29,952 nt of DNA from a virus. Taxonomy: Duplodnaviria; Caudoviricetes. Of this stretch, positions 6,401-15,948 are shown in pieces. The position numbers were made by a program, and so were the translations under genes. A model generated the notes under the pieces. The model worked only from the letters and a program-made list of their open reading frames with translations, did no database searches and was not told the origin of the DNA. The stretch covers positions 1-29,952 of the IMG/VR virus record IMGVR_UViG_3300021085_000143; one strand, written 5' to 3'. The stretch's first letter is position 1, and each line of letters starts with the position of its first letter.

Positions 6401-6431
6401 ACGATAAGTTCAAATAAATAAAAAAATGAAC

Positions 6432-6460
6432 TTGCAGAATTATTTTTGCGAGATTATGAT
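6432..6460 (+). promoter_or_regulatory. sigma70 promoter driving the structured non-coding region
   Basis: TTGCAG (6432-6437), 17 bp, TATGAT (6455-6460). A-rich UP-like tract upstream, bracketed by the inverted repeat AAGTTCA (6406-6412) / TGAACTT (6427-6433). Confidence 0.7.
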
Positions 6461-6466
6461 GCTGGT

Positions 6467-6830
6467 TGTCGGTGGGCTGATCAAGCCCTAAATTCTGACA
6501 AGGAGAAAAGGAAAACAGAAACCCGACGCACTGATCTTATACTATATTTAGTGTTTGTCATAATTCCTTTTTCTAATCGACTGCGAAGGATATGTCACCC
6601 TCACGGGGTCTCTCACCGAGCGCAGTTTTAAGGCCCAAAAGAGTAGCGCGGGGCCACCGCAACTTGCTAAAAGTCTGAATGCGGCGCGGGGGGATGGAGC
6701 AGCATCCCTTGCAGACTTGCTTGTATCAACTGACTCATTGATACGGCCTCGCCATCCACACTGACGGCTCCGAAGGCAATGCAATGTCCCGAAACCTACT
6801 ACCCTGTGGGTTGGGGCTTGCTTGCTCGCA
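6467..6830 (+). ncRNA. Candidate long structured RNA (possible replication primer/origin or regulatory leader)
   Basis: Dense nested stems: GTCGG/CCGAC, GGGCT/AGCCC, TTCTG/CAGAA, ACTGCG/CGCAGT, AAGTCTG/CAGACTT, GGGATG/CATCCC, GTATCAA/TTGATAC, AACCTAC/GTGGGTT. No convincing ORF. The 3' boundary is approximate. Confidence 0.6.
6534..6561 (-). promoter_or_regulatory. Candidate counter-transcript promoter
   Basis: Minus strand ATGACA (6561-6556), 16 bp, TAAGAT (6539-6534). Predicted +1 near 6527. Confidence 0.45.
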
Positions 6831-6859
6831 AAACCTCCTAACTCACCAAAGGCAATACA

Positions 6860-7045
6860 ATGACAGACACTCAACAAGTAGACTTAAGTGAAAAGCCTTG
6901 CAGATGCGGTGATACAATGGGAGAGGTTATAGGATTTAGAGAGAGATCTACCGATAAAGAAAAAGTTATGCACAGGGTTTGTTGGTACTGCGCTAAATGC
7001 CACGCTACAGAGAAGGCAATAGGTAGAGAAACTTATGTAAATTAA
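6860..7045 (+). CDS. Small Zn-ribbon protein
   Basis: CRCG...CWYCAKCH; weak RBS. Confidence 0.6.
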   Translation: MTDTQQVDLSEKPCRCGDTMGEVIGFRERSTDKEKVMHRVCWYCAKCHATEKAIGRETYVN

Positions 7046-7080
7046 AACTGTTGACACTATTAATTCAAATAGATTAGTAT
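7036..7080 (+). promoter_or_regulatory. sigma70 early promoter with TGTAA-N11-TGACA repeat
   Basis: TTGACA (7051-7056), 18 bp, TAGTAT (7075-7080). Leader hairpin TGGTTGC-ACAAC-GCAGTCA at 7089-7107. Confidence 0.7.
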
Positions 7081-7127: not shown

Positions 7128-7424
7128 ATGCAAAATGTACCTGAAGGCCGTGTAGAAATTACCGGTGAAATCATTTACACAAAATGGTATGAAGGCGACT
7201 ACGGAGAAGTGCTGCAATGCACTATCCGCGACGATCGCGGTTTCAGAGTCTACGGATCAGTGCCTACTGTTATCGTAGATTACGCTAGTTCCGAGGACCT
7301 GGAATTAAAGGGCCAGAGAATCAGGCTTACTGGCACAGTAAAGCCCAGCCATGACGACCCTCAATTCGGCTATTACAAACGGCCGGCGAAATCGCAGCTT
7401 ATTCAAGAATCAGCCCTGCTATAA
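7128..7424 (+). CDS. Hypothetical protein, possibly OB-fold
   Basis: Beta-strand pattern RVEITGEII...GFRVYGSVP...GQRIRLTGTV...YKRP; strong RBS. Confidence 0.7.
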   Translation: MQNVPEGRVEITGEIIYTKWYEGDYGEVLQCTIRDDRGFRVYGSVPTVIVDYASSEDLELKGQRIRLTGTVKPSHDDPQFGYYKRPAKSQLIQESALL

Positions 7425-7443
7425 CTTCTCGGGAGATGAAGCT

Positions 7444-7647
7444 ATGAAAAAAGAATTGTATTTATTAACGCTCGCAATCATTGTCATTGCCGGGCTCAAT
7501 TATTCTGGCAAGCTTGAGAAACAAGATGCCGAAATCGAATCTGCTCAATACGCTTCCATGGTGTGCCTAGGCAGACAGACCGGTCAGCAATTTGGCTGGC
7601 CAAATTATCGCAACCTTGATATTGACTGTACGGAGATAAACCAATGA
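7444..7647 (+). CDS. Small membrane-anchored or periplasmic protein
   Basis: Likely start ATG 7444 (GGGAG upstream). MKKELYLLTLAIIVIAGL hydrophobic N-terminus, two Cys, GWPNY motif. Confidence 0.7.
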   Translation: MKKELYLLTLAIIVIAGLNYSGKLEKQDAEIESAQYASMVCLGRQTGQQFGWPNYRNLDIDCTEINQ

Positions 7648-7879: not shown

Positions 7880-7922
7880 TGTCACCTAAAAGGGTTGACA
7901 CCCCCAGTGGTTTCTGTAGAAT
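7880..7922 (+). promoter_or_regulatory. sigma70 early promoter with TGTCA-N11-TGACA repeat
   Basis: TTGACA (7895-7900), 16 bp, TAGAAT (7917-7922). Leader hairpin GGAGGGGCG-CGG-TGCTCCTCC at 7933-7953. Confidence 0.75.
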
Positions 7923-8281: not shown

Positions 8282-8493
8282 TGGATCCAGTAATTGCAGA
8301 CCTTAACCGCTACCTCGACGAGTGCGATGCTTCTATCGATGAGCAGGAAGCAGCCGAGCTCCAATTGTATCGAGATCGCCTAGACTGGGCGACTCGTGTA
8401 GTGTCAAACGAAACATTGACTCTCACTGAGAAGGCCCGCCGAATTGTTGCCGGCATTGAGGAAGAGGTAGAAGAGGCCCTCAATGGAGCTTAG
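8281..8493 (+). CDS. Hypothetical acidic helical protein
   Basis: Likely start ATG 8281 (MDPVIADLNRYLD) after GGAG. Confidence 0.7.
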   Translation: MDPVIADLNRYLDECDASIDEQEAAELQLYRDRLDWATRVVSNETLTLTEKARRIVAGIEEEVEEALNGA

Positions 8494-9985
8494 ACCCCAC
8501 CAGCAAAAGGGAATCGACATGATTCGTCATTCCCTTCAAACAGGACACATGAGGCCGCTTTTGGCGGCTCCTTGCTCTTACGGAAAAACGTACGTCGCCC
8601 TAACAATGATGCTTGCTTACGCAGCCCAGGGGAAGCGCAGTGTCTTTTATGCAGACAGAGTAAAGCTCGTACAGCAAACTGCCGACACGCTGGACCAAAT
8701 GGGCATTGATTACTCTGTCATGCAGGCGGACGACCCCAGGTGGGACCCTCGAAAACTTATCCAAATCGCTTCAATACAGACTGCCGTCAAAAGACCAAAT
8801 CTTAATTTTAGTTTCGGCATTGTCGATGAGGCTCACACTGTCTACAAAGGTTTCAGGGAAAAGTACCTGGATCGCTATGACGCAATCCCTTTTGTTGCGC
8901 TCTCAGCCACGCCATTCAGCAAGGGCTTGGGAGAGATTTGGGACGATCTTTTGATCCCGATTACAAGCGAAGAGCTGACGGAACTTGGTTACCTGGCGCC
9001 GATTGATTATTACGTCGGGAGCTCGATTGATACCTCAAACATTCGAACCAAGCGCCTGCCAACGGGAGGGACAGAGTTTCACCCAGATGATCTTGGCGCT
9101 GCCATGGTAGAGGATGACCAGCTGAGCGGTGACATAGTGGAGAATTACCTTAAGCATTCGCCTGATGGAGCCAAGCGCGCGATTGCATTCTGCCCGACTA
9201 TCGACCATAGCAAGACACTGGTAGATAAGTTTAACGCGCACCCTAGCGGCATCAAGGCGCGTCACATTGACGGTTATACCGACCAGGAGCTCAGGACTGC
9301 ATTATACGAGGACCACCAGGCTGGCAGATTCTCGGTGCTATCATGTTCCCGCTTGCTCGGGACTGGATACGATGCGCCCTATGTCGAAATGTTGATTGAT
9401 TGTTATCCCTGCAAATCAAAAATTGATTTCGTGCAGCGTTGTGGCCGTATAGCCAGAATTTCTCCTGAGACCGGCAAGACCAGGGCAGTCTATCTGGACC
9501 ACGCCGGAAATATCTCCAGGCACGGACAGCTCCCAGATACAATTGTGCCCTATCAGCTAGACGACGGCACCAAGCGTTACAACGAGGACCGGTTGATAGA
9601 GCAAGAAGAGCGCCAGCCAGTGCTCAGGCCGTGCCCGGTCTGTACAACGCAAATGAGCGGCAGAAGGTGCAAAGCCTGTGGCTATGAGCTGCCAGTAGAT
9701 ACCGAGCTTTATACTGACAATGAAATCCTCAAGAAGATTCAACGAGAGGATATGCCGAAGCCCGAGAAGTATGACATCACCGACAAGCAGCGTTGGTTCT
9801 CTGAGCTCTCAGCTTATGCGGTTCTTCGCGGGTACAAACAAAACTGGGCTGTCTACAAATACTCAGAAAAATTTGGAGTGGCGCCGTCTGGTATTGAGAG
9901 AGTGACCGCGAGCTCGATATCTGTGGAAGTAAAAAACTGGATTAAATCAAGGAATATTGCAAATGCACATAGACGAGCTGGCTAA
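8483..9985 (+). CDS. Superfamily 2 (DEAH) helicase with C-terminal Zn ribbon, RadD/UvsW-like
   Basis: LRPHQ Q-motif, APCSYGKT, DEAH, LSATP, GTGYD, QRCGRIAR, DHAGN, CPVC...CKACG. Confidence 0.93.
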   Translation: MELRPHQQKGIDMIRHSLQTGHMRPLLAAPCSYGKTYVALTMMLAYAAQGKRSVFYADRVKLVQQTADTLDQMGIDYSVMQADDPRWDPRKLIQIASIQTAVKRPNLNFSFGIVDEAHTVYKGFREKYLDRYDAIPFVALSATPFSKGLGEIWDDLLIPITSEELTELGYLAPIDYYVGSSIDTSNIRTKRLPTGGTEFHPDDLGAAMVEDDQLSGDIVENYLKHSPDGAKRAIAFCPTIDHSKTLVDKFNAHPSGIKARHIDGYTDQELRTALYEDHQAGRFSVLSCSRLLGTGYDAPYVEMLIDCYPCKSKIDFVQRCGRIARISPETGKTRAVYLDHAGNISRHGQLPDTIVPYQLDDGTKRYNEDRLIEQEERQPVLRPCPVCTTQMSGRRCKACGYELPVDTELYTDNEILKKIQREDMPKPEKYDITDKQRWFSELSAYAVLRGYKQNWAVYKYSEKFGVAPSGIERVTASSISVEVKNWIKSRNIANAHRRAG

Positions 9986-10388
9986 TCTCTGTGAAAAGCC
10001 CAGGAAAAACGGTTTAGGCTGGACTGTATGTTGCCCGGTGCATGGAGAGAAAAACCCCAGCATGAGTATCAAGCTAGGCAGGAAAGGCGATATTATCGCT
10101 CACTGCTTTGCCTGCCACGCCAACGGAATGGACCTGGCAGATGCCTTGGGGATAAGTAAATCGGAACTCTTCGCGCAGCCCCTGGAAAGGCAGAACGACC
10201 AGAACTGGAAACTAAATTCCACCAGGGACTCTGACGACGGATACATTGTAATCCACGAGAGCGCCCTAAAGCGCGGCGAGAAGCCACGCTACGATGATAT
10301 GATGGAGTATAAGCGAGCAATGGCTAGAAGGGCTCAGAGAACAGCCCTGGGCCTTGAGCAAACAATAATCCCAACGGAAAAACTTTAA
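9963..10388 (+). CDS. CHC2-type primase Zn-finger protein without TOPRIM domain
   Basis: CCPVHGEKNPS...HCFAC; about 141 aa; no TOPRIM E/DxD motifs. Confidence 0.8.
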   Translation: MHIDELANLCEKPRKNGLGWTVCCPVHGEKNPSMSIKLGRKGDIIAHCFACHANGMDLADALGISKSELFAQPLERQNDQNWKLNSTRDSDDGYIVIHESALKRGEKPRYDDMMEYKRAMARRAQRTALGLEQTIIPTEKL

Positions 10389-10576
10389 TGGCTATAGAAG
10401 ATTTGGTGAAAGGAAAGCTTTTGGCACAATTGGCGCAGGATAAGGCTGCTTACTTTGCGGCCGGGGGCAAGGTAACTGTATTGCCGCGACAAGCTTACGC
10501 CGACGCAAACAACAAGAAAAACCATTTAAGCTTTGGTGAGATTAAAAATAAGGCTCTTCAAAAGAAGAATATCTAG
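10388..10576 (+). CDS. SutA RNAP-binding-domain-like small protein
   Basis: LAQDKAAYFAAGGKVTVLP resembles the L.....AFL..GGKI..V motif of SutA-like proteins. Confidence 0.5.
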   Translation: MAIEDLVKGKLLAQLAQDKAAYFAAGGKVTVLPRQAYADANNKKNHLSFGEIKNKALQKKNI

Positions 10577-12428: not shown

Positions 12429-14669
12429 ATGGCTGAGTACGAGAACGGAACGGAAGAGAAGGAAGAGGATAAGGAGTCGGGCCAGTACACCGAGGACGAT
12501 CTCTCGTACAAGGCTGATTACGATGAGCATCAAGACGTAATCAACTTACTGTCTTCGTGCCAAGAGGCGGACCACGACAACCGCGAGAACGCTCGCGAGT
12601 CCCACTTGTTCATAGACAAAAGGGACGGTCAGTGGGAGCCCATGTTCTGGAATTCTAACGCTAATCGTCCGCGCTACCAGTTCGACTCAGTGAACCCAAT
12701 CATTGATCAGATCTCTAGCGGCATCGAGGATGCTGACTACGATATCAGGGTGAGCCCAGCCGGCGGCAATGCGACGAAGGACGTTGCAGCGACCTATGAC
12801 GGCATCATTCGCAACATTGAGAATCTATCTAACGCTAAGCAGATCTACTCTCAGTCAGCTCGTGGCATGGTCACCGGCGGCTTTGATGCGTGGCGTGTAT
12901 GCCATAAGTATGCAGACGACAACTCATTCGATCAGGACATCATGATCGAGAAGATTGCTAACCCGCTTGACCGAGTATGGTTTGATCCAGCAGCAGAGAA
13001 GCAGGACAAGAGCGACTCTCGCTATGCGTTCGTGCTGCATCCGGTAGCCGTAGACGAATACGAAAGCCGCTGGCCTGAGGGCTCTGGCGAGTCTGTCTCT
13101 GATGACCGTGACGGCGATGCTTACTTTGACAAAGCCGAGGTCATTGTTGTCGGCGAGTTCCTGTATGTAGAGTCAGAGGACCGCGAGCTCGTGCTTATGA
13201 GCAACGGCCAGACCCATGAGGTCAGTGACGACTTTGACAAGATCAAAGACGACCTTGAGGCTATCGGGGTGACCGAGGTTAAGCGCCGCAAGCGCAAGAT
13301 GCACAAGGTCTGCTCTAGGTTCTTTGATGGCAAGGACTGGTTAGAGGATGACCGCGAAACAGTATTTAACCGAATCCCTGTGGTGCCTGTATACGGCAAC
13401 TTTAAGATATTCGAGAACAAAACGATTTATTGGGGCGTGGTTGAGAAGCTACTAGATCCGCAGCGCGTCCTGAACTATGCGATGAGCCGTGAGATCGAAG
13501 AGGGAGCTCTGGCGCCACGGGCTAAGTACTGGATGACCCCTGCCCAAGCATTAGGGCACGAGGACCAGCTACGCACTCTAAACACAAACAATGATCCGGT
13601 GCAGTTCTTCAACGCTGACCCTGAGTTCCCATCGGTCCCACAGCAGAACGGCGGAGCCCAGATCAACGCAGGTCTGCGCACTGTTGCTCAGGCAATGCAG
13701 GGCATGATCAACGCCACGGCTGGTATGTTTGCAGCCAACATGGGCGACAACCCTAACGCTCAGTCAGGCGTCGCTATACGCCAGCTACAAGACAAAGGCG
13801 ATAACGGTACTCTCAAGTACAGCCGGTCAATGGAAATCGCTATACAGGCTACCGGGCAGCTTATTAAAGACGCTATCCCCAAAGTATACGATACCGAGCG
13901 GACTATTCGTGTTCTCAAGGAAGACGAGTCCTATGACATGGCGGACATTAACCAGAAAGCGGTTGATAACGCTACCGGTGAGATTGTGGTGATAAACGAC
14001 CTTAGTGTTGGCGTCTACGACGTAGTATGCAAGGCAGGCCCAAGCTACAAGAATCGCCAGCAAGAGACTGTAGAGGCAATCACTAATCTAGCGCAGATAG
14101 ACCCGTCGCTGATGCAGATCGCCGGCGACCTACTATTGCAAAGCGTAGCTACCCCAGCGGCAGGCCAGATCGCAGAACGCAAGCGGGCCCAGATGATTCA
14201 GCAGGGCTTGATCCCTATGAAGCAGCTAACCGAGGAAGAGATGGCCGAGCTCCAGCAAGCGCAGATGCAAGCGGCTCAAGGTCAGCAGCAGCCCGATGCG
14301 GCAATGGTTATGGCTCAGGCAGAAGGCATGAAGGCTCAAGCAGAAATGCTTAAGGCTCAGATAGACCAGGCAAAGCTTCAAAATGAGCAGATGAAGCTAC
14401 AGCTCGAAGCTCAGAAGCTACAGTCTCAGATTATGGGTGACCAGGCTGATAATCAAATCGACGCATTTAATGCGGAAACCAAACGCATTGATTCTGAGGT
14501 TAAAGCTCAGCAAGCCGGCGCAACCATTGACCGCACCGAAATCCAGTCATTTGGCGATCAGCTAGACAACCAGGCTAAGATGACGGACCTTATGGATGAG
14601 CAGGAACGCAAGGCCCGAATGAAGGCAATGGGTGTAAATGACTTAATGAGGATCGCTACCGGTGGCTAA
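12429..14669 (+). CDS. Portal protein, P22 gp1-like
   Basis: After terL; 746 aa; GQW, VWFDP.A...D.SD, IPVVPVYG, DPQR..NY, SGVAI, G.YDV....GPSY..RQ motifs; long Q-rich C-terminal barrel helix. Confidence 0.92.
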   Translation: MAEYENGTEEKEEDKESGQYTEDDLSYKADYDEHQDVINLLSSCQEADHDNRENARESHLFIDKRDGQWEPMFWNSNANRPRYQFDSVNPIIDQISSGIEDADYDIRVSPAGGNATKDVAATYDGIIRNIENLSNAKQIYSQSARGMVTGGFDAWRVCHKYADDNSFDQDIMIEKIANPLDRVWFDPAAEKQDKSDSRYAFVLHPVAVDEYESRWPEGSGESVSDDRDGDAYFDKAEVIVVGEFLYVESEDRELVLMSNGQTHEVSDDFDKIKDDLEAIGVTEVKRRKRKMHKVCSRFFDGKDWLEDDRETVFNRIPVVPVYGNFKIFENKTIYWGVVEKLLDPQRVLNYAMSREIEEGALAPRAKYWMTPAQALGHEDQLRTLNTNNDPVQFFNADPEFPSVPQQNGGAQINAGLRTVAQAMQGMINATAGMFAANMGDNPNAQSGVAIRQLQDKGDNGTLKYSRSMEIAIQATGQLIKDAIPKVYDTERTIRVLKEDESYDMADINQKAVDNATGEIVVINDLSVGVYDVVCKAGPSYKNRQQETVEAITNLAQIDPSLMQIAGDLLLQSVATPAAGQIAERKRAQMIQQGLIPMKQLTEEEMAELQQAQMQAAQGQQQPDAAMVMAQAEGMKAQAEMLKAQIDQAKLQNEQMKLQLEAQKLQSQIMGDQADNQIDAFNAETKRIDSEVKAQQAGATIDRTEIQSFGDQLDNQAKMTDLMDEQERKARMKAMGVNDLMRIATGG

Positions 14670-15948
14670 GACCAATCAGGAGCTCGCTCAGGAGCAGTTA
14701 GACTCCATGGGCATACCGTGGAAAGGCGCAGAGATGAAGCCCTTCTCGCCGTCTATCAACCCGTTTAACCCTAACTTCAGGGCCACGATAGGCAGCAAGC
14801 TGCGCGAGTGGATTGACGACAGCGGCATAGGCGGCGGCTACAGGCAAGGGCTTATCAACGCTGGAGAGGGCATTGAGACAGCTATAGACTTCACGCCGAT
14901 TATTGGTGACGCGGTAGGGGTTGGCGATATACGCACTTCGTACAACCAAGGCGACATGGTAGGCACTGGTATTAATACTGCTGCTGCGGCTGTTGGTGCG
15001 TTGCCTATCATTGGGGATTTTGCGGCTAAAGGTGTTAAGTCTGCGTTGCGTGGCTTAGAGATTGGCCCAGAAATAAGGATGAAAAGAGCCGAAGAACAAG
15101 GCTACGAGCCTATATATCACGGAAGCACTTATGATATTGAGCGGATAGATTTAAATGGAATGAATCCTGAAAGCCACTTCGGAAGAGGATTTTATAGCAC
15201 AACTTCGCCTAGAGATGCTTCTGACCATTACGCAGGCGAAGGGCCTGATTTAACTAATCGACTGCAAAGACGAGCAGAACAATTAGAGGGCGAAGGTGTT
15301 TCTCCAGACAAAGCAATGAATACTGCGAGAGAAGAGCTAAAAGGTGGTAATGAGGGTGTTGTTTATCCATTGATGGGCAGGACTACTAAAGCATTTGACA
15401 TATCTAACGATGGCGATACCTTCCTGCGGTACGAGCAGCCTGAGCTAAATCCAGAAGACTATCTGGACGAAGCTGATGGTGATATGGATGTGGCTTATGA
15501 GCTTGCTCAAGAAGCTGCGTATGACTTTGAGCCAGAAGGTGAGTTAGTGGACTTTTTAAAAAGCCTTCGTAGCAATTCATCGTTGAGCCAAGATGATTTT
15601 GCAACATTGCAAAGCAGCATTTTGGAAGAGGCGTATGATGGTGGAATTAGCGCAAATAGATTAGATGAGATTTTTAGGCAGGCAGAAATATACCCAGAAG
15701 ATGACGCAGGAAATCTCATATCTAATGACGTATTCAGACAAGCAATTCAAGATTCTGGATATGACACAATTATTCATGAAGCCGACATATTCCGTGGCAT
15801 GGATGTAGATAAAGGCACTAAGCATAAGATATTTTTAGACCCCACAAGAGTACGCTCAATCAACGCCGAGTTCGACCCAGCCAAGATGGACAGCGCAGAC
15901 CTACTCTCTAGCGTTGGCACTACCAGTGCGTTGCGAGGGATAGTCTAA
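14662..15948 (+). CDS. PT-TG-like domain plus ADP-ribosyltransferase-like (ART-PolyVal-type) protein
   Basis: DFTPIIGDAVG...ALPIIGDFAAKG (pre-toxin TG-like), then IYHGS, FGRGFYST, GVVYPL, GYDTII and DPTRVRSINAEFDP...DLL. GTG start overlaps the portal end. Confidence 0.7.
   Translation: MAKTNQELAQEQLDSMGIPWKGAEMKPFSPSINPFNPNFRATIGSKLREWIDDSGIGGGYRQGLINAGEGIETAIDFTPIIGDAVGVGDIRTSYNQGDMVGTGINTAAAAVGALPIIGDFAAKGVKSALRGLEIGPEIRMKRAEEQGYEPIYHGSTYDIERIDLNGMNPESHFGRGFYSTTSPRDASDHYAGEGPDLTNRLQRRAEQLEGEGVSPDKAMNTAREELKGGNEGVVYPLMGRTTKAFDISNDGDTFLRYEQPELNPEDYLDEADGDMDVAYELAQEAAYDFEPEGELVDFLKSLRSNSSLSQDDFATLQSSILEEAYDGGISANRLDEIFRQAEIYPEDDAGNLISNDVFRQAIQDSGYDTIIHEADIFRGMDVDKGTKHKIFLDPTRVRSINAEFDPAKMDSADLLSSVGTTSALRGIV

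Follow-up and report, generated by a model that had tools for sequence, protein, structure and literature searches.

A phage genome without a recognised initiator

How does a tailed phage begin to copy its DNA if it carries no recognisable initiator gene? The question is raised by a 29,952-nt stretch of an IMG/VR virus record (IMGVR_UViG_3300021085_000143, 84% complete), here called the window, whose gene set includes a P22-like portal and coat, Erf, an exonuclease, an HTH protein, NinG, a superfamily 2 helicase and a CHC2 zinc-finger protein. The original prediction, made from the sequence alone, had noted that the window lacks an initiator, a polymerase and a catalytic primase. We likewise found none among its 30 proteins with PHROGs or, with Pfam, among 65 proteins selected from the window and from four complete relatives; remote initiators might escape these searches. 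No integrase or ParA was found among the proteins scanned from the four complete relatives, and no ParA or ParB among the scanned window and relative proteins (PHROGs, Pfam). No Xer/dif-like site matching the consensus was found in the window or in these four genomes, and GC skew does not switch in the window.

The helicase (8483–9985, + strand) is RadD/YejH-like, shares about 31–33% identity with the nearest helicases of cultured phages and is the constant partner of the element described below. The CHC2 protein (9957–10388, + strand) has a primase-type finger, with PF01807 alone matched and no recognised catalytic domain; its 11 homologues, from a search that spanned lengths 78–251 only, are of similar or shorter length.

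Upstream of these genes, positions 6401–6859 had been described as the only long ORF-poor stretch of a tightly packed genome. With overlapping ORFs allowed for, it is the sole ORF-free gap of at least 200 nt in the window; the other listed gap (7424–7644) is occupied by a gene at 7444–7647. All the motifs named in that description are present at the positions given. The open frames 6446–6631 and 6548–6877 are lost in relatives through frame-shifting indels, and the minus-strand frame is open in one of 23 copies of the same RNA type (type A, below), that copy being identical to the window. A protein-coding reading was therefore rejected, neither frame being conserved. All of 100 shuffles of the + strand fold less well than the strand itself (z = −3.3); the − strand does not stand out from its own shuffles (z = −0.9), and the conserved core alone gives a weaker signal (z = −1.7). 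Fold, covariation and promoter together predict a long structured RNA of about 390 nt on the + strand (6466–6860); no + strand terminator was found for it.

Compensatory changes support a conserved RNA body

The 3' part of the predicted RNA, which we call the body (type A; 6577–6857, + strand), is modelled with 12 helices and 63 pairs. Among relatives gathered through helicase and NinG, it is 90–96% identical in all nine compared; in the flanks, NinG DNA is 71–81% and full-length helicase DNA 76–80% identical. Stems were assessed in 23 of the 24 type A copies (one truncated copy omitted; 21 distinct rows) against a null in which the same substitutions were re-dealt on the tree. L559, which looks chimeric, was omitted from the alignments.

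Four of the five stems proposed from the window alone hold in these copies: ACTGCG 6580/CGCAGT 6621, AAGTCTG 6671/CAGACTT 6712, GGGATG/CATCCC and GTATCAA 6723/TTGATAC 6738. Over their 26 pairs, both-sided changes numbered 11.6 (null, 0.2) and breaks 0.7 (null, 18.1). Compensatory changes occur in three of the four; AAGTCTG/CAGACTT is invariant in type A and varies only in distant homologues. The fifth stem, AGGCC 6631/GGCCT 6745, is broken in 12 of the 23 copies and was rejected; in its place, 6632–6636 pairs with 6651–6655, with compensation.

Across the type A copies pairing is kept: the corrected 63-pair model shows 0.4 breaks against 42.7 in the null and 17.7 compensatory events against 0.5, with both-sided change at 10 separate pairs and event counts that phage recombination can inflate. 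Watson-Crick pairs drifted to G-U in 11 events and to A-C in none, a bias that speaks for RNA of the + strand rather than for DNA hairpins or a − strand product. Covariation and fold thus bear out the folded + strand RNA of the original prediction.

A pseudoknot is predicted at 6657–6718 (+ strand), where 6657–6661/6680–6684 is crossed by 6671–6677/6712–6718. It encloses a hairpin (6691–6708) and the G6 run at 6688–6693, which had been singled out earlier and is invariant in type A. Both helices still pair with different sequences in three distant homologues (L303, L655 and L643; four sequences in all). The long hairpin expected near 6776–6825 was found at 6775–6826 (+ strand) and holds a second G run (6813–6816); it is invariant or G-U variant in the 23 type A copies and is retained with changes in L303, L655 and L643.

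A 5' control module with a predicted antisense RNA

The long RNA had been credited with its own promoter. A sigma-70-type site lies at 6432–6460 on the + strand (−35 TTGCAG 6432–6437, 17-nt spacer, −10 TATGAT 6455–6460), with a predicted start near 6466–6468. The window copy falls below the threshold of the consensus scanner; a promoter-like site scoring at least 8 occurs at the matching place in 82 of 92 homologues, against 6.6% of random places. On the − strand the scanner did find a promoter, at 6561–6534 (−35 ATGACA 6561–6556, −10 TAAGAT 6539–6534). This site, about 65–95 nt inside the transcript, scores at least 8 in 79 of the 92 homologues (random places, 6.6%), with −10 variants TATAAT, TATACT, TAGAAT and TACAAT. 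A minus-strand hairpin of −6 kcal/mol or lower followed by at least five U residues overlaps the sense promoter in 84 of the 92; the corresponding predicted terminator in the window (6420–6452, − strand), which overlaps the sense −35, is weak, with a score of −1.0. All these counts refer to 92 distinct copies with enough flank and are not independent, since the module copies are related. The conserved antisense promoter and terminator pattern agree with the ColE1/MRB-like antisense control that had been proposed.

Promoter and terminator together predict an antisense RNA of about 105–110 nt (6420–6527, − strand), mostly 115–150 nt in relatives and 101–176 nt overall. It would pair with the initial ~60 nt of the long RNA and is predicted to fold as a two-loop 5' domain plus terminator. 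The control module itself (6468–6527, + strand) has GTCGG..CCGAC stems and a variable hairpin loop (6474–6488) that we infer to be the specificity loop. Pattern scans recovered the module at 209 loci, in 93 distinct copies, with 18 alleles of the recognition loop, several common to more than one body type. A scan with a loose pattern gave 97 of 120 loci without a module match, and the 5' module was absent from all 71 loci recovered with a type B pattern. Among 185,579 species genomes there were 90 pattern matches, the best scoring 19.6 bits on the 5' profile; we regarded them as chance, and no prophage or host was assigned. In the complete genome G005 (L002/L023), both hairpins of the module (window 6473–6517) are absent, so that the loop is gone while both promoters are kept.

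Long-range pairing is predicted across the antisense promoter (6491–6574, + strand: 6491–6501 with 6555–6565 and 6504–6514 with 6564–6574). Variants of it can be read in other body types, and of 91 copies only 31 beat composition-matched shuffles (P ≤ 0.05). The minimum-energy fold predicted for the body does not change when the 5' 62 nt are blocked, so this modelling does not support refolding of the body upon antisense binding; termination is the likelier mode of action.

Behind the antisense start lies a tract in which C exceeds G in 90 of 93 copies (12 C and 11 G in the window, which is not C-rich there). It points to termination, and its resemblance to a Rho loading site favours an alternative to an origin, for which we take P4 CI and P1 c4 as the models: an antisense-controlled leader, that is, an immunity or attenuation switch gating the downstream early and replication genes, with a body that acts in cis, for example as an antiterminator, and an origin elsewhere. 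We consider this unlikely on the evidence given in the following sections.

Transcription and the downstream gene

Metatranscriptome contigs from seven RNA runs of six studies cover the element, without strand or ends; the runs were picked using this very stretch, depth is low and DNA may be present, and a want of contigs in other runs carries no weight. Transcription of the cassette (module plus body) is weakly supported. The RNA contigs continue into the downstream gene, which typically begins 2–53 nt past the body; both points are as expected of a leader. In the window this gene (6860–7045, + strand) encodes a Cys-rich protein of 61 aa without a family, which differs between relatives.

Other aspects of the arrangement speak against a leader. 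The first ORFs 3' of the cassette (n = 83) belong to 14 families, 42 of the 83 to that of the window's 61-aa gene, and beyond some bodies comes a new promoter, as in L328, or a terminator-like hairpin. Four sister phages carry the cassette downstream of the helicase. Between cassette and helicase in the window are two near-consensus promoter-like sites (7051–7080 and 7895–7922), and we count these sites for the helicase operon, together with the varied downstream gene, in favour of an origin.

One control module, several RNA bodies

Four body types were found behind one 5' module: A (24 copies), B (60), C (3) and D (5). Type C is homologous to type A (E = 8e-8), and the A/C profiles do not match B or D. 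Different bodies can share a loop allele, and L323 and L341 show no difference as far as the junction of module and body. The cassette was found on phage-like contigs only, in a lambda-like siphovirus (G004) and in P22-like podoviruses, and lies on the helicase strand, pointing towards the helicase whether the recombination genes are in line or divergent. Its presence with two unrelated virion modules links it to the helicase module, not to virion genes, and on the same ground we rejected a packaging-RNA reading. The erf-exo-HTH-ninG block is inverted relative to the window in L033, L233, L235, L223 and most type B loci, with the breakpoint immediately 5' of the cassette.

Two G runs, one internal and one preceding an A run, stand 100–110 nt apart in 56 of 59 type B copies. 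They repeat each other and co-vary in three variant classes, as expected if the internal run pairs with the template of the other; this could equally be explained by an RNA switch. The repeat is less clear in type A. A tree-aware G-test on 58 type B copies gave no pair at E < 0.05, six of the top 10 pairs being canonical. Type A also lacks the G5-A5 end and the 3' motif of the other bodies (0 of 23): types B, D, E, F and G (the last three described below) share a motif of about 20 nt just ahead of the next gene, in many of the E, F and G copies.

More distant loci were taken from a helicase alignment search (the best 80 of 500 matches; phages at 43–52% identity). Among 47 such loci (L611–L658, with L657, a known type D, omitted), 37 carry a cassette by motif or by profiles that were built partly from the loci they scored: 17 of type F, 10 of type G, five of type E and five with a different, same-strand switch. 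Two others have a DUF1376 gene, and eight were left uncalled, six of these with at most 1004 nt upstream of the helicase. Profiles matched between F and D (E = 2e-12), between G and E (E = 1e-15) and between E and the window's 5' module (E = 2e-7). Unannotated bodies behind related 5' modules lie 340–1350 nt upstream of the helicase, with type F at L624, L630, L632, L637 and L651, type G at L615, L620, L639, L640, L647 and L656, and type E at L648, L650 and L653. L639 and L640 differ mainly in the recognition loop. A promoter-led non-coding stretch of about 550 nt, L617:3040-3600, matches no cassette profile and is possibly a further body type.

The same-strand switch (L655:5725-5870, L643:3612-3770, L638:10262-10420, L645:7305-7465 and L611:1175-1330) has an upstream loop complementary to the loop of a long downstream hairpin that ends in a U-run. 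Both loops differ together between L655 and L643. We take this design to resemble c4/CI, and it is a further point for a leader. The bodies of L638 and L645 look like type A in their motifs, a similarity that is not significant (E = 0.3–0.55), and the RNAalifold consensus of their alignment is poor.

HNH endonuclease genes lie directly 3' of type C bodies and of the L655 body (L303:1540-2112 on the − strand, L337, L526 and L655:6108-6770), and could drive body exchange. These genes, the precise body swaps behind one module, the pseudoknots and the invariant unpaired bases would all suit a trans-acting or selfish RNA (an unknown ribozyme, a protein-binding RNA or a passenger carried by an HNH homing endonuclease), with the antisense switch controlling its level. 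We regard this as the least probable of the readings considered: most copies, including that of the window, have no HNH gene, no Rfam ribozyme or intron model matched, and the cassette's presence at 37 of the 47 distant loci, with DUF1376 at the two clear exceptions, suggests an essential, substitutable function.

An RNA body and a DUF1376 gene exchange in one slot

The bodies of L655 and L643, behind the same-strand switch, are homologous to type A/C (E = 5e-14 and 7e-4). Their sister L646 matches L643 at 87% and 93% in the left flank and at 86% and 90% in the right flank, and is 75–92% identical to L655 and L638 on both sides. Between the same two genes the sisters have switch and RNA; L646 has in their place a DUF1376 gene together with inverted repeats and an AT-rich tract. 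A second case is L614, a complete P22-like genome with DUF1376 ahead of the helicase and no cassette match. DUF1376 occurs in two of 33 records, neither with a cassette match; the other 12 records that are at least 90% complete all carry the cassette, but were chosen for that. The exchange was seen in one sister group, plus L614, and not in the window's own clade.

The two DUF1376 genes are short (L646:6100-6660, 122 aa; L614:7370-7910, 110 aa), less than half the 255–309 aa of the proteins in two cultured phages, and both have a structured leader over the ribosome site, 3' repeats and an AT-rich tract. PHROGs labels the family 'primosomal protein'. The gene lies immediately upstream of a DnaB helicase in Vibrio phage 1.137.O and follows cI/cro in Acinetobacter phage AbTJ, which we take to be the position of lambda O. 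No solved structure of DUF1376 was found, and two literature passages on DUF1376/ydaU give no function. From annotation and position, DUF1376 proteins are putative initiators.

The swap of an RNA body for an initiator-like gene in one slot suggests that the RNA likely starts DNA copying in place of a protein. The structured leader of the DUF1376 genes means that the slot may instead be regulatory, as a leader would have it; yet it is the whole body, not the switch, that is replaced by DUF1376 and repeats, and a leader would also leave the missing initiator unexplained.

The same slot and gene-content evidence would fit an origin whose RNA does not prime: transcription or the folded RNA would open the DNA or recruit helicase and CHC2 finger, and host DnaG would prime. 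Helicase and CHC2 finger are constant neighbours of the cassette, and the 3' motif of types B, D, E, F and G could be a protein site. That motif is absent from type A, however, no CHC2 match was found next to the helicase in the sister group with A-type bodies, and the dense tertiary-type conservation suits a primer RNA equally; we think this variant quite unlikely, a little more so than a leader.

Relationship to known RNAs and replicons

At gathering score, no Rfam family matched the window or 12 distant loci, two tRNAs aside. At E ≤ 1 there was none for 10 loci and elsewhere only chance matches (E = 0.1–10), and models of group I/II introns, known ribozymes, ROOL, GOLLD, OLE, HEARO and ARRPOF in Rfam 15 found nothing. 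Blastn against cultured phages and against 72,556 plasmid records gave chance matches or none, and four cassette profiles reached at best E = 0.75 against the ColE1 record.

ColE1 uses a folded primer RNA II, an antisense RNA I and no initiator protein (PMC5043065). The cassette resembles it in the absence of an initiator gene, in a long structured RNA predicted from its own promoter, in a predicted ~110-nt antisense RNA over the 5' end of that RNA and in G runs both internal and near the 3' end. It differs in having no sequence, profile or Rfam match, a shorter RNA (390–500 nt), an antisense RNA with two loops and a terminator that covers only ~60 nt of the long RNA, several unrelated bodies and a setting in a tailed phage with its own helicase.

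MRB plasmids of Vibrionaceae (such as pB1067) have an ORF-free origin of about 500 bp with opposed RNAs and a 68-nt RNA I with two stem-loops; their control core is short and conserved, has variable loops and may stand before another long RNA, as in pES213 (PMC3035462). The cassette likewise combines one such core with several long RNAs, whereas its predicted antisense RNA is 101–176 nt, a two-loop domain plus terminator, and lies on phage-like contigs. MRB origins share a conserved RNA I core of ~110 bp; the cassette had no blastn match in the 72,556 plasmid records, and pB1067 was compared by description only.

A phage precedent comes from cluster A mycobacteriophage prophages, whose origin expresses a non-coding RNA as an alternative to a RepA gene among related phages (PMC7157519). 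In both cases a phage RNA alternates with an initiator or initiator-like gene among relatives; theirs lies beside parABS and serves a plasmid prophage, whereas the cassette has no parAB found, neighbours a helicase and a CHC2 finger and has an evident antisense unit. ARRPOF, GEBRO and PAGEV are moderately long structured RNA motifs of plasmids, tied to replication regions by context (PMC5737381); they differ in being plasmid motifs, and the cassette has no Rfam match to any family.

The literature we searched holds no description of the cassette. One study lists more than 10,000 candidate RNAs from IMG/VR (PMC10690425); six cassette motifs were absent from three of its supplements, and parts of the cassette may be among its candidates.

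The c4 RNA of P1 and P7 and the CI RNA of P4 are antisense immunity RNAs with variable recognition loops, processed from the same strand. The cassette shares the variable loops and, in L655, L643, L638, L645 and L611, the same-strand switch of complementary loops and U-run. The window's antisense RNA is on the opposite strand, though, and what it would control is a large RNA; the c4/CI Rfam models matched neither the window nor L655.

Our verdict is that the cassette is a real, undescribed family of antisense-controlled large phage RNAs. It is likely a replication origin that works like ColE1 or MRB replicons, with no sequence match to either family in the records searched. The proposed likeness to an RNA-based phage replicon is supported for the layout of antisense control and, indirectly through the exchange of body and DUF1376, for an origin; by sequence, the searches give no sign of membership of ColE1 or MRB.

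A proposed model of an RNA-primed origin

We consider the chances somewhat better than even that the cassette is an antisense-controlled, RNA-primed replication origin of the phage. Host RNA polymerase would make the ~390-nt RNA, and the folded body would hold it on its template near the 3' end as an R-loop, with G-rich segments acting as in ColE1. The RNA would thereby do the work of an initiator protein, opening the origin and priming it. Host RNase H and Pol I, aided by the phage helicase and the CHC2 finger, may then turn the R-loop into a fork that runs towards the helicase gene, and Erf, exonuclease and NinG would serve later recombination-dependent replication. The ~110-nt antisense RNA would bind through its variable loop and stop the body from being made or folded, giving copy control and exclusion between phages with a common loop allele. 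The need for copy control is left unexplained by the lack of partition genes or a Xer site among our findings; a multicopy carrier state and the exclusion of co-infecting phages are candidate reasons for negative control.

More tentatively, and with rather more doubt than belief, we suggest a generalisation: a widespread clade of marine tailed phages without integrase or partition genes may start replication from interchangeable 'RNA initiator genes', in which at least two unrelated fold families and two antisense switch designs are reshuffled, swapped one for one with a protein initiator and iterons, and sorted by loop alleles into exclusion groups.

Known RNA-initiated replicons comprise ColE1, MRB plasmids and some mycobacterial plasmid prophages, the last being the precedent for an RNA-based phage origin (PMC7157519). 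If the cassette is an origin, a large group of marine tailed phages joins this list, several large RNA folds are new, and replication is accounted for in genomes that lack an initiator, a polymerase and a catalytic primase. Phages that are almost identical but fill one slot with RNA or with protein would then be a natural experiment on RNA replacing an initiator. At 500 bp and with allele-specific control, the cassette lends itself to testing and might be developed into compatible vectors for use in marine bacteria. Even without an origin function, the antisense-controlled RNAs would form a new family of large, structured phage RNAs.

Variable genes near the cassette and the virion module

Small proteins near helicase and CHC2 in relatives match the SutA RNA-polymerase-binding domain (L577:2817-3017, L581:4113-4337 and L614:6745-7074); the window protein in that neighbourhood (10388–10576) has no SutA match. 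A variable slot lies between the portal and scaffold genes (window 14662–15948; L577:7616-10915; L580:3056-4645; L583:17767-18966). It has a weak ADP-ribosyltransferase-like match in the window and SAM-lyase-like and zeta-toxin-like domains in relatives, and looks like a site for counter-defence cargo.
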